DNA from: Eledone cirrhosa
Lineage: Eukaryota
DNA: 64,000 nt
NCBI GenBank assembly: GCA_964016885.1
Contig: OZ024742.1
Span: 55,180,001-55,244,000, forward strand
Direction: 5' to 3'
Positions 5,416 to 60,659 of the stretch are shown here, piece after piece (the stretch's first letter is position 1; each line of letters begins with the position of its first letter). A program made the translations under genes and the position numbers. The notes beneath the pieces are model-generated. The model was not told the DNA's origin. It worked only from the letters and a program-made list of their open reading frames with translations, and ran no database searches.

Positions 5416-7863
5416 ACATCAAATAATGTAACCTGAAATATATATGAACTTGAACGTCTTTGATCATAGATATGATCTTTGATATCAATGAATACGGCCA
5501 GTAAAGTAGATCAATTATATCTCGCGGCAACGAATTGACATAATTACACATTAAAAAAAAAAAAATGTATGAAGGCAACGTGAAATAGGTTAATTCATAC
5601 TGACAAGGAAATGAGGGCGAATGTTTTTGCTGTTGACTTCAACGGACAATAGGAAATTTAATATACGGCTGTTGATGTATCAAAAGACACCAAGAAAATA
5701 AACTTGTTTCTATGTTTTCATTATTTTCCAACAGATGGTTAATTATTTTCAAACCATATGGCAGAAATATCCTTGTACAATGTTGAAATTAAGTTACTAA
5801 CAACCACGTCATCCATGCAGTCAAATACATAATGGTCACTAATTAATATTTAAATGTGTAAAACAATATAGTGTAAAGATGTGAAATTACGTCAAACTTA
5901 TTACGTAGAAAATGCACACGGAAAGAATACATTTTCACGAGACCAATGTACATATACATCAGTTTGTGTTACGAATGAACAATAGATATTGAACTAGTGA
6001 AATAAATTGAATAATAATTAATTTATAATTTAGTTTTGTTATTAAGATTATTACTATTTTTAATAATAATGGTAAATTTTGCATAGAGGAAACTGATGAG
6101 CACAGAAATATTAACTACATTATAAATACCATTAACAATACTATTTATTATATAGAAACCATATATTTTATTCATTTTTGGTTGTAAATTGAGATCATCG
6201 CAGAATATTATTGACTAGAGCATCAATAAGCTCCTTCAGATGACAGTTATTGGAATAAAATTACACCTGTAATATTCGACTAAATTATAAGGTGAATTTC
6301 TGCAGCTGCACATATTACCATATACATAATCAGAAATTAATGTCGATTCTAATGAGTGCGTTTTACCAATAGACATGTTCTAGTGATAAGTATAAAATTA
6401 TAATTATTCATCATAAAACATTTGGAGTGAATATGCCAATGAAAATTAATATATTGAGAAATGTGAAAAATTACATCTTTACAAAAGCCAGCATCAAAAA
6501 ATTCCGAAAAATGTACTTGCCAGCCTCTAATAATTTTCTAATTACATATATGAAAGTGTTCCAGTATCTAAATCACTTTTTTGTTAACAAATATTACTAC
6601 AACATATATACAATTAATTTCCATTAAACGTGTATAACAATCGATCTTACATTGTTCAATATTTTCATTAGATTTATATTACAATTGTACATAATTATAT
6701 CCAATTTTGATTAACCAAAATATATACAAACAAAGATAAATATAATTCTGCAAATACACTGAAGTGTTATTATACAAAGTGTCAATCTAGACAAATGAAA
6801 TTTCGTATCAGTATTACCATGAAGAGCAGATTGAAAATCACTGCAACACAAGTGCCATTTATTCGTCGTCCATCATTTGAAAATCTGAAATAGATAAACA
6901 TTACATTATAATAACTAAAAAAATGAAGTAAATACGATGTCGGCTATGATAGAAAATTATTTATTTAAACGTGTTTATGAGAATATAAGAAATGGACTTA
7001 TAATGAGACACACACACACAAACACACACATATCTATCTATCTATATACTACTAAAACTCTGTGTTTGCTCGCTTGTTTGTTTGTCTGTAATGTAATACA
7101 GCGAAAGGGATGCGTAATGGGAAAATACTTTGAAACGAAGTTGACTTTGAAATGGGGATACAAATGGAATAAATCAAGATTCACGTAAATCGGATATAGG
7201 TTTTTTCCGGGTACCTTCATAAATAGAGAGAGGAGAGAGAGAGAGAGAGAGAGAGAGAGAGAGAGAGAGAGAGAGAGAGAGAGAGAGAGAGAGAGAGAGA
7301 GAGAGTGGTTGTGAGAGAGTAGATTGAAAGAGAGACATAGAAAGAAGTAGGGGAGGCAGAAAAGAATAGAAGAGAGAGAGAGAGAGAGAGAGAGAGAGAG
7401 AGAGGCAGAGAGAGAGAGAGATGGTGGTGTCGTTGTATATATATATATATATATATATATATATATATGTGAGTGTGTGTATATATATGTGTGTGTGTCA
7501 ATGATCAGTGTATATAGATCACAGACACCCACATACACACACACACACATTTATATATATACATACACATACGTATATATATGGGCCTTCCAGTTTCATT
7601 TCACATTATATACATGTCTGTCTATATCTTAATTATTTAAAAATTATTTTTAAGTGAACATGATTTTAAAAAAATATTTTGAACTGAACTTGACCCAACG
7701 GGACATGAGTGGTCTAGTATATTATATATAATATATATATATATATATATATATATATATATATATATATAACGAAGGAAATGTGGTAAGGAACCAGGTG
7801 GACCATAACGCACCAAAGTACTCAATACTTGAGGTAGTAGAGTGGGTAATAGGAACCAGTAAG

Positions 7864-7957
7864 ACCCCGACAGCTGAGCTCAAGCCGTTTCGACGGCTAA
7901 TTCTGGACTAAATGAAAATTTATCCTGGTATTTAAATAGCCGATCTTCTCAAGGGGT
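7864..7957 (-). ncRNA. Hammerhead ribozyme, U3-A8 variant (mirror of 10339-10432)
   Basis: Reverse complement of the 10339-10432 motif. Confidence 0.8.
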
Positions 7958-8989
7958 AATTCCATATATGGTCAAAGTGATTGTCAAAAATCAGTAGTAA
8001 TTCTGTGGTTGCAAATTAGTAGGGGAGATGGTGGCTAAACCTGCCAGTAGGAGAAAGAGGGGAGGGGGTGGAGTAGACCCAATCAAGCGTTGGTAGTGCC
8101 AGCTACAGCTGGGCATGAGGTCAAAGAAGATACAGGGGAGGGGGAGGGGGAGGAAGTCGGAACGGTAGGTAGAACAATGGGGGGTAGAAATAGGAAAGAA
8201 AAAAAAAAAAAAAAATACTGAGAGTGAAGAAAGGCAAATAAGTGTAAAGAAAAGTAAAGTAAATTAAATTCTACGACCTAGGTGTCAGGCTATTGTTAGG
8301 CGAGAATAAAATAAAGAAAGAAAGAAAGAAGTAAAAAAATAAATAAATGAATAAATAAGGAAATAAGTAAGAGAACTAGGTGGGACGAATTAGGCAAGGA
8401 CCCTTTTAAGAGGTATAAGTACGTAAATGATACGGTGACGGGTCAACAAAAGGGGCCAAAATACTAAAGAGACTACCACGAAATAAACAATAAAGGTTTC
8501 CATCCCGGGCCAGCAACGACCCAGTGCAGCAAAGTGAACTTGTACGAGATAATAATTCTGAGTCCCGAGAAAAATATATACTAATGCTAACTCTAAAAGA
8601 TCTAAAACAAGCTACATGAAAGTTCGTACGAAATAAAGGTAGAATACGGAGAAATAAATTCAGAATCCACCCCGCCCAGAAGAAAAGCGAAGCAAGAAAT
8701 ACTGAAACGAAAAAATAAGGCATGTGCCACTAAGAAATATAGAGGGCACAGAGAATAGTGGGAGCGGTCGGAAAAAGGGGGAAAGTATCCGGGGTCTAAG
8801 CCAGCTACTATAAAGGGCGGAGTCCGCCAAATCTATCAAAGACTAGGGGAGGGGGGGTGGGGGTACTAAGGCTACATGGGGCCAAAGGGCAGCCTCGGGT
8901 GGGCGAGAAAAGACGCCGACAAAGGAGAAGAGCTGGGGTAGAAGGACAAAGGGGAGAGGGGGGAAGGAAATAAAGGAAGCGATAAAAGA

Positions 8990-9226
8990 ATATGGGACCT
9001 CAAGGACAACAACATCACCTATGATCTCACTTGGAGATTACTGTCCAGAGCCAATTCTTACACGGGAGGACGCCGTCCGTGCAATTTATGCTCGGAGGAA
9101 ACTTTACAAATGCTGTTTTCGACGGACCAACTCCTAAACAAGAAAGATGAACTGGTTACTGCATGTAAACATAGATTGCGTAGGAAATACCTCGCCCTCA
9201 AACCCCATAATGACCCGGGGGGGTAG
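8990..9226 (+). pseudogene. C-terminal fragment of PLE GIY-YIG endonuclease (not in ORF track)
   Basis: Manual translation IWDLKDNNITYDLTWRLLSRANSYTGGRRPCNLCSEETLQMLFSTDQLLNKKDELVTACKHRLRRKYLALKPHNDPGG*; W.LL..A..Y...C.LC..E...LN...E....C.H pattern. Confidence 0.85.
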
Positions 9227-59174: not shown

Positions 59175-59381
59175 TTGTTATACTTGGGGAGGGTCATATT
59201 CGTGTAATAATATTGCCAGAATTAATAACAGAACACACTCACTGTTTGGTTGGTTTTCGCTTCTGTGTCTTTGTAAAGGTTAATTTAATTTATTCGGTCC
59301 TTAATTTTACCAAGTATAACAATATTTGTTTCGACACACGATTTCATATCAAAAACCTCGGAAAACTAATTCATCGCCGTA
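59175..59381. mobile_element. 207 bp two-ended family D' mini-insertion
   Basis: 59175-59310 matches 35758-35896; 59310-59325 inverts the terminus; tail 59326-59381 matches reverse complement of 35711-35754. Confidence 0.88.
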
Positions 59382-60363
59382 ATATATATATATATATATA
59401 TATATATATATAATGTGTGTGTTGGCGATTCAATTCCAGACGCTTATATATATATATATATATATATATACACACACACATATATATATATGTGTGTGTA
59501 AATAGAACATCAATTGATTTATCGATCCTTCGTGTTTCATTCGTCTCACCTACATTTATCATCTTGTGAATTCTCGCATTTGTAGACTTAATTTTCCTAT
59601 AAAAGTTTCTCAATAGAATTTCTGTCGAAATCCTGCTGTGTAAACACACACACTGTTATTAAGGAGCGTAAACAGGGGAACTGTCAACAGGACTCCAGTG
59701 TGCAGACCAACATCTTTACAAATATGAAAGTCCACTGAATAATGTCAAATTGCAAAGACCCTAATGATCGCAAACTCAGCAGTACAAATTAATTATTCAT
59801 GAATACTCTGAGTGAAATATTGATTAAATGGACGATATACAAGACCAGCAACAAATGAGAATCTGTGCATCCACTTGTCCTAGTACAATTTATAGTAGTG
59901 GAAATATATATAATTATTTGCATACATATATAATCATAAATGAATTGTAATTTCGTAAATATATATATCTAAACTAATTGACAGATATTTGAATATATTC
60001 GTTGAGATGAATTATATACAGTAAAATATTAATCCATTACACAAACTAAATATATATATGTATATATATATGATTAAAATAATTATTTGATGTTTAGTAT
60101 GAACTGTTTAATTATTGTTTTTGTTAAACTGACTATAGTTTTCATTTCTATTTGATATATTCTTTCATTTGTTTGCACATTATCTCCTGTGTATTGTTTG
60201 ATATATAGTTATATATGTCATTTGCTTTTTAATTTATATATATATATGTTCGAAGTTACAAGGCCAGAACAATGCAGGTTTGGATATAGAATATAAATAG
60301 ATACACCTTTATATCAAAACATTTATTTATAAAGTGGGTATATATATATATATATATATATAT

Positions 60364-60659
60364 GCAAAAGTTCAATTTAAATTGTTGGGATACAACAAGT
60401 AAATATTATTATAACTGATATAAAGCACTCGACAAATATTTGGAGTAGATATACAGTATTAATAAATGGAAACTATATTTATAAAACCATATTTATTTCA
60501 TTATATATATTTCAAGGATACCAAGTTAAATCATGGTATGCCTTCATCAGATTTTGTCTGATGAAGGCATACCATGATTTAACTTGGTATCCTTGAAATA
60601 TATATAATGAAATAAATATGGTTTTATAAATATAGTTTCCATTTATTAATACTGTATAT
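60364..60659. mobile_element. 211 bp perfect hairpin (5 nt loop) + 85 nt tail in (TA)n
   Basis: 60449-60551 inverts 60557-60659; contains a hammerhead. Confidence 0.85.
60551..60613 (+). ncRNA. Type I hammerhead ribozyme
   Basis: ATTTTGT-CTGATGA-AGGcATACCA..TGGTATCCTt-GAAA TATATA TA-ATGAAAT. Confidence 0.78.

Follow-up and report, generated by a model that had tools for sequence, protein, structure and literature searches.

How a retrotransposon insertion comes to carry an outward-facing end on both of its sides is the question raised by a 64,000-nt stretch of the Eledone cirrhosa genome (contig OZ024742.1, positions 55,180,001 to 55,244,000, assembly GCA_964016885.1). This stretch, hereafter the window, is rich in (TA)n tracts and in remnants of Penelope-like elements (PLEs); the host assembly measures 3.0 Gb. 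The initial annotation had listed 13 inserts in (TA)n, each built from an inverted and a direct copy of an element's 3' end with one arm running further than the other, and had proposed that both target strands prime reverse transcription at two nearby sites, the two cDNAs then being joined. We find that the insertions have two recurrent ends, that these are paired in a near-obligate manner, that the inner joint differs in almost every copy, and that either arm can be the longer one. The best explanation, which we consider probable, is that one enzyme–RNA complex would cut both (TA)n strands and prime one cDNA on each, using one of the two end sites per strand. The annotated proposal gains support from the recurrent ends, their pairing and the insertions that need two cDNAs; the priming step is read back from these products.

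Recurrent ends and their pairing

The two recurrent end points of each family are called S and L: the L arm extends past S, and the extra stretch is the tail. Inverted arms were sought by self-BLAST of the window after simple-repeat masking, and end points were tabulated in 1.55 Mb of the genome, sampled as 31 arbitrarily placed 50-kb blocks from 15 contigs. From 3332 termini clustered de novo, 14 families in which an S class was linked to an L class were hand-picked from the link list. This clustering took the place of a motif-based pairing whose seven S+S pairs were low-complexity or cross-family artefacts.

Ends recur rather than fall at random: every family showed two modes in the sampled blocks, S and L, 40–166 nt apart. 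For family A, the commonest, 28 of 72 TA-ended matches ended near S and 39 near L. Because these end points recur across the genome, the layout shared by the window loci is not a chance resemblance. Same-family outward pairs, found in 13 families, accounted for 180 of 319 classified termini and comprised 88 L+S, two S+S and no L+L pairs (P=3e-24 against independent choice at p=0.5). This statistic rests on the sampled blocks rather than on a genome-wide tabulation of the three pair types, and 12 cross-family neighbours, all with TA tracts between the partners, were dropped from it. Two-armed insertions range from 42 bp to 7.8 kb.

Individual searches gave a similar picture. Taking the long arm at 60364 as the query, we saw a partner ending on the identical S base in 14 of 30 loci and one ending 10–13 nt off in two; apart from L020, which is possibly L+L, the rest lacked a clear partner within 1.5 kb, three of these being S-partnered further out. 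Of 30 further family A arms, 21 could be given a partner within 1.5 kb, in no case one of their own type, with one arm's own end unclassified. Inspection of 27 unpaired family A termini revealed that about 16 belong to L+S pairs missed through divergence or arms of 4–5 nt.

Two cDNAs and their probable template

Among the 95 L+S insertions, 47 are near-palindromes, 23 lack an anchored inverted repeat and 25 have a gap that can be measured. The unique middle of the gapped insertions lies on the S arm in 15, on the L arm in six, and is unclear or too short in four. Since a snap-back copy is limited to what its template contains, snap-back would always place the middle on the tail arm; yet in 15 of the 21 resolved insertions, each arm holds sequence missing from the other. 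These insertions need two separate cDNAs, and snap-back of a single cDNA cannot be the general route.

This bears on an explanation that we regard as unlikely, in which a single cDNA primed at L folds back to yield the other arm, which the endonuclease shortens to S. Endonuclease-mediated resolution is suggested as the source of the tail in the accessible text of PMC8557442, the TA-like S sites could serve as places of cleavage, and the 47 near-palindromes have no clear middle. However, the S-arm middles reach several kilobases, each arm may carry its own extra G (see below), and reverse transcriptase (RT) starts at both sites have been shown in vitro, according to the accessible text of PMC11167929. 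Folding back is excluded as a general route, and some copies with an L-arm middle could still arise in this way. Among long insertions, the S cDNA is the longer one in about 14 cases versus seven by hand count, a weak trend on which we do not rely.

The template of two separate cDNAs is suggested by the small family A insertions. Of their 68 arm stops, 52 lie between −51 and −64 relative to S. A frequent stop for both arms in family A is the position 58 nt upstream of S, where a non-genomic G is added. Continuous copies read TTTAGTCC or TTCAGTCC at this point, which we take to resemble an initiator; it lies about 230 nt upstream of the first ATG of the open reading frame (ORF) in the element L257. 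Joint counts for family A were made genome-wide with exact sequence patterns. The arm joint GGACTC-N-GAGTCC was found at 88 loci, versus one for four control combinations, and GGACT-N-AGTCC at 352, with C or G at the centre in 44 of the first 50 listed, where the genomic base is T. Six double-G loci, together with L014, represent several subfamilies, with the centre in either orientation. Counts of the single base preceding AGTCC (G 2366, C 2330, A 455, TTT 6975 of 14305) are confounded by partner-arm bases and by a C-bearing subfamily, and a small local tally gave three G and three C; the two-arm patterns alone were used.

Double-G junctions are expected if a capped mRNA 5' end is copied. As far as the accessible text of PMC4859970 goes, untemplated G at the 5' ends of L1 and SVA copies is interpreted as reverse transcription of the cap, a likeness between LINE-1 and family A. 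We infer that the family A minis are copies of the mRNA 5' end, reachable by both cDNAs. The initial annotation had placed cDNA priming in the element's 3' region; for the mini-insertions, the template is more likely the mRNA 5' end.

Inner joints differ in nearly every sampled copy. For family A minis, local alignment gave 18 microhomologies, two blunt joints and 14 insertions among 34 joints (six skipped), and an exact walk along the 40 of 56 family A insertions with both arms at the hotspot gave seven with 1 nt of overlap, nine blunt and 24 with extra bases. Six of 11 family A joint inserts of at least 8 nt copy nearby arm sequence. In other families, away from the hotspot, overlaps of 2–5 nt are common by alignment. 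The locally templated filler resembles polymerase theta joining; RT template jumping is an equally possible source.

A proposed priming mechanism and its alternatives

The signals at the start sites suggest how the two cDNAs might be primed. The S site matches the TA phase of the target over a mean of 2.7 nt, versus 1.0 for the null, and over at least 3 nt in 51% versus 8% (n=53). Directly after S, a hairpin motif, RCTCY...GAGYRC, is present in 33 of 36 insertions from five of the eleven families tested (null 9%); it also follows L in families A and B, and S in the 15096 family. This repeated signal would fit two binding sites on a single RNA. Each nicked (TA)n end may pair over 2–7 nt with a UA-rich RNA stretch ahead of the small conserved hairpin. 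Both cDNAs would then extend inward, stopping independently or running off at the capped 5' end, and their 3' ends would be joined bluntly, via short microhomology or with locally templated filler. Arms differ at 1.7 of 43 nt within an insertion versus 4.5 of 43 between insertions. The asymmetry is most simply explained by two protomers on one RNA, which the data do not distinguish from two RNAs. One apparent non-TA target, L023, was set aside: one side is the element's own read-through sequence, and no target duplication is readable there.

It is also conceivable, if improbable, that one arm is target-primed and the other cDNA is self- or fragment-primed off target and ligated by host repair to the remaining target end. 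This reading draws on single-ended copies, on hybrids and on joints that look like end-joining, but both ends are precise, abut (TA)n equally often and share short TA-phase homology, and PAc, the Poseidon enzyme, extends both strands in the accessible account of PMC11167929. We give very little credence to the palindromes being non-autonomous units copied whole from a few masters, as in miniature inverted-repeat transposable elements (MITEs). The family A minis do cluster at 185–212 bp, and some joints recur hundreds of times. Against this, joints vary in nearly all sampled copies, which argues against amplification from palindromic masters; sizes span the range given above, and several subfamilies share the recurrent double-G joint, its centre lying either way round.

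Independent neighbouring insertions or assembly artefacts are the least credible source: (TA)n tracts are indeed re-used, as the 12 cross-family neighbours attest, and palindromes are hard to assemble, but TA tracts separate all of those neighbours, the arms within an insertion resemble each other more closely, and raw reads contain the strand switches. With 88 of 90 pairs being L+S and joined head to head, the arms cannot be independent adjacent insertions, which upholds the annotated view of them as parts of one event. The initial annotation had looked to raw long reads as a guard against artefacts. We examined three Illumina runs of reduced-representation libraries on 7772–8100 (19,704–22,447 reads placed per run); these short reads speak for the family and not for the window loci themselves. 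(TA)n-abutting loose ends were found in 2,771–3,176 reads at S and 971–1,983 at L, opposite-strand joints led to 7908–7910 from several positions, and contig depth in run X4 dropped about tenfold across 7903–7915. A depth cliff at 7902 in restriction-site-associated DNA runs coincides with an AATT site and was not used.

Several observations weigh against coupled priming at S and L. Automatic pairing covered only the 180 termini given above, about 11 family A termini proved single-ended, hybrid or unassignable on inspection, two pairs were S+S, and L020 may be L+L. The arms of L252, one of 44 family A insertions, come from different subfamilies, and L026 (1413–1688) combines one arm of family B with one of family A. 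The exact walk (n=40) shows no enrichment of microhomology at the family A hotspot, and the hairpin motif followed S in none of 17 insertions from the remaining six families. The concordance of arms could stem from subfamily succession or gene conversion; (TA)n targets hide cut geometry and target-site duplication; and in the accessible text of PMC11167929 the start site is reported to lack homology to the cut DNA. The extra G appears firmer as evidence for an RNA end than for a cap. Dual priming itself is deduced from genomic sequence.

A wider model, which we put forward only tentatively, would make coupled two-ended target-primed reverse transcription (TPRT) the normal PLE route. A dimeric RT would use the two hairpin-marked sites of one RNA, one strand per protomer. 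Initiation in the 5' copy would give strong-stop cDNAs that are either joined into 190-bp palindromes or jump to the 3' pseudo-long terminal repeat (pLTR), building partial tandems. If true, such a jump would amount to retrovirus-like strand transfer in a target-primed element.

Much of this architecture has precedents. Published work already covers inverted pLTRs and tails, the use of two RT start sites and the extension of both strands. In canonical endonuclease-bearing (EN+) PLEs, the inverted pLTR and tail are described as optional or frequent and their origin is left open (accessible text of PMC3846280 and PMC8557442). The present insertions share with them the inverted 5'-truncated copy next to a direct one, the one-sided tail, partial tandems and microsatellite targets, and differ in tails of 40–166 nt (30–40 bp in the accessible text of those papers), 88 of 90 L+S pairings and sizes from 42 bp. 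In the PAc TPRT assay in vitro, two adjacent internal start sites were used and both strands extended, as the accessible text of PMC11167929 has it; what the initial annotation had advanced as inference, without mention of this work, was thus already shown in part. Cutting and extension of both strands, start sites that bound the tail, a predicted dimer and an AT-rich target would be common to PAc and our insertions. In contrast, in the same text the start sites are not linked to the inverted arm, pairing per molecule is untreated, and no cap run-off or hairpin motif is described. The openly readable literature, supplements aside, gave no statement of near-obligate L+S pairing, of cap run-off or of a hairpin motif following S and L alike. 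The locus adds sequence evidence that the two start sites are probably used as a pair in one event in vivo.

LINE-1 twin priming, a mechanism reportedly set out by Ostertag and Kazazian in 2001, is similar in that both target strands prime and two cDNAs are joined. There, however, the second primer is used at variable internal sites, the pieces do not overlap, and the route is a minority one. Here the second site is fixed, the arms overlap and the end is duplicated, in what appears to be the default; twin priming of the LINE-1 type does not describe these insertions. MITEs with TA target duplication are likewise short palindromes flanked by TA. They have a fixed interior and symmetric ends, whereas the insertions described here have an asymmetric tail, a variable centre and continuity with RT and GIY-YIG ORFs.

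Reverse transcription primed by the two cut target strands within a single event would likely explain the inverted PLE shape, whose origin, like that of the PLE tandems, is called an open problem in the accessible text of PMC8557442 and PMC11167929. The in vitro system already available offers direct tests of the pairing rule, of the predicted start site and of the motif that follows each site. Telomerase RT has its closest relatives in the RTs of PLEs, and a fixed mechanism using two sites and two strands would be relevant to how RTs evolved. The 88 pairs per 1.55 Mb extrapolate to roughly 170,000 such insertions genome-wide. Many of these insertions are likely misannotated as MITEs or microRNA hairpins; among the matches listed in an Rfam scan of the whole window, there were only hairpin matches below threshold.

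Elements and insertions in the window

The affiliation to EN+ PLEs is supported by a single ORF at 61966–63867 that matches Pfam RVT_1 (E=4e-4) and, as the C-terminal endonuclease, GIY-YIG (E=2e-6). L257, a relative of the family A insertion at 7772–10444, contains an open frame of 786 codons with YRDD and YIG motifs; it has no Pfam match, and tblastn links it by way of a shared relative. Read-through of the L end into the beginning of the ORF was seen in L257 and L259, with direct repeats of 99% and 95%; as is usual for a pLTR, it forms a partial tandem, and the ORF starts downstream of the end region. The inverted 5'-truncated copy and one-sided tail of EN+ PLEs are also present. Twelve long pairs hold PLE ORF remnants between the arms, upstream of them and reading toward an end, and two distinct ORF types were seen among the elements.

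Hammerhead-type cores were found by pattern search on the sense strand in families B, D, E, F and 15096; Rfam found a hammerhead at neither of the two sites tested. Three family A insertions stop at a predicted hammerhead cut 17 nt upstream of S, too few for a claim: L039, a blunt join of two arms stopping there, and cases in the C3:300 Mb and C8:25 Mb blocks. The 18351 family (L116 region, C4:250.00 Mb; window 18352–19068) also forms head-to-tail units of about 590 nt in which no ORF was found, resembling retrozymes.

Table 1. Positions of insertions and signals in the window
Feature	Position	Strand	Description
Family A insertion	7772–10444		Inverted L arm 7772–8992 (80-nt tail 7772–7851), direct S arm 8993–10444 with endonuclease C-terminus
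Hairpin motif RCTCY...GAGYRC	7817–7843	−	Directly 3' of S site; second copy after L in read-through copies
AGTCC, strong stop of both family A arms	10387–10391	+	58 nt upstream of S; predicted capped transcription start
Two-armed insertion	10531–12125		Inverted S arm 10531–10769; direct L arm with endonuclease remnant (tblastn E=3e-11), 135-nt tail
Two-armed insertion	13306–13899		Inverted L arm (83-nt tail), direct S arm; putative sense
45-bp insertion	14000–14044		Inverted L end (14 nt) joined to direct S end (33 nt)
Single S arm	15096–15256	+	Hammerhead-like core; no L arm; outside the layout
Two-armed insertion	18352–19068		Inverted S arm, direct L arm, ~166-nt tail; family also in tandem units
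Two-armed insertion	32429–32844		Inverted L arm (~60-nt tail), direct S arm; putative sense
Two-armed insertion, partial fit	35712–36773		Long end non-modal; TA flanks incomplete
Two-armed insertion	52894–53414		Inverted L arm (41-nt tail), direct S arm
Near-perfect palindrome	53433–53798		65-nt tail; family of the ORF-bearing element at 60758
Family A mini	56151–56286		L arm ends within tail; S arm begins G-AGTCC
Two-armed insertion	59176–59381		Inverted S arm, direct L arm
Family B palindrome	60364–60654		~90-nt tail; type I hammerhead pattern at 60551–60613 (+)
5'-truncated RT + GIY-YIG element	60758–64000	−	L end at 60758; stop at 63058–63060; absent from the initial annotation

Eleven of the 13 annotated loci are full two-armed PLE insertions in (TA)n (Table 1), the 35711 locus conforms in part and the 15096 locus does not. 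Self-BLAST revealed inverted arms of 84–99% identity at 7771, 10531, 13305, 18351, 32428, 35711, 52892, 53431 and 60364; those of 7772–10444 are 99.3% identical over 1141 nt, with an ORF remnant on the plus strand. Arm overlap at 13999, 56150 and 59175 is slight or nil, and the family L and S ends still lie in opposite orientations. Copies resembling the 45-bp insertion measure 42 bp and 47 bp elsewhere. At 35711, the left TA run is just 5–7 nt, the right side abuts another element and the long arm stops about 16 nt before the usual L end. The 15096 locus is a single sense arm whose family matches span query positions 8–160 on one strand, with seven bases unexplained; the L end of a tail of about 110 nt, present in five fetched relatives, is absent from it.

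Tails had been annotated as 12–135 nt long: the 12-nt value came from 15096, which has no L arm, and the tail at 18351 exceeds the range. The outward orientation of both 3' ends is backed by an ORF or hammerhead core at nine of the 12 two-armed loci, weakly so at 52892 (E=0.003, in a relative), and neither was found at 13305, 18351 or 32428. The 60758 element follows the same L/S rule: its inverted S partner arm lies just right of the window (about 64386–64985; 97.7% identity).

Further insertions lie outside the annotated list. Positions 14603–14831 hold an older two-armed insertion between TA tracts (inverted S, direct L, ~66-nt tail), and another L end of its family starts at 14890. Inverted-repeat insertions are also present at 48676–49827 and at 36774–38695, the latter with a minus-strand PLE RT fragment. 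Short perfect inverted repeats face each other over a TA tract at 59127–59158/59413–59444 and at 14795–14821/14890–14916, and are probably the ends of separate insertions in one shared tract. Fragments of a non-LTR retrotransposon, a different class, occupy 20995–22197 and 54600–55350. Helicase fragments at 29591–31372, which we take to be Helitron-like from their motifs, adjoin 140-nt repeats at 28975–29648.

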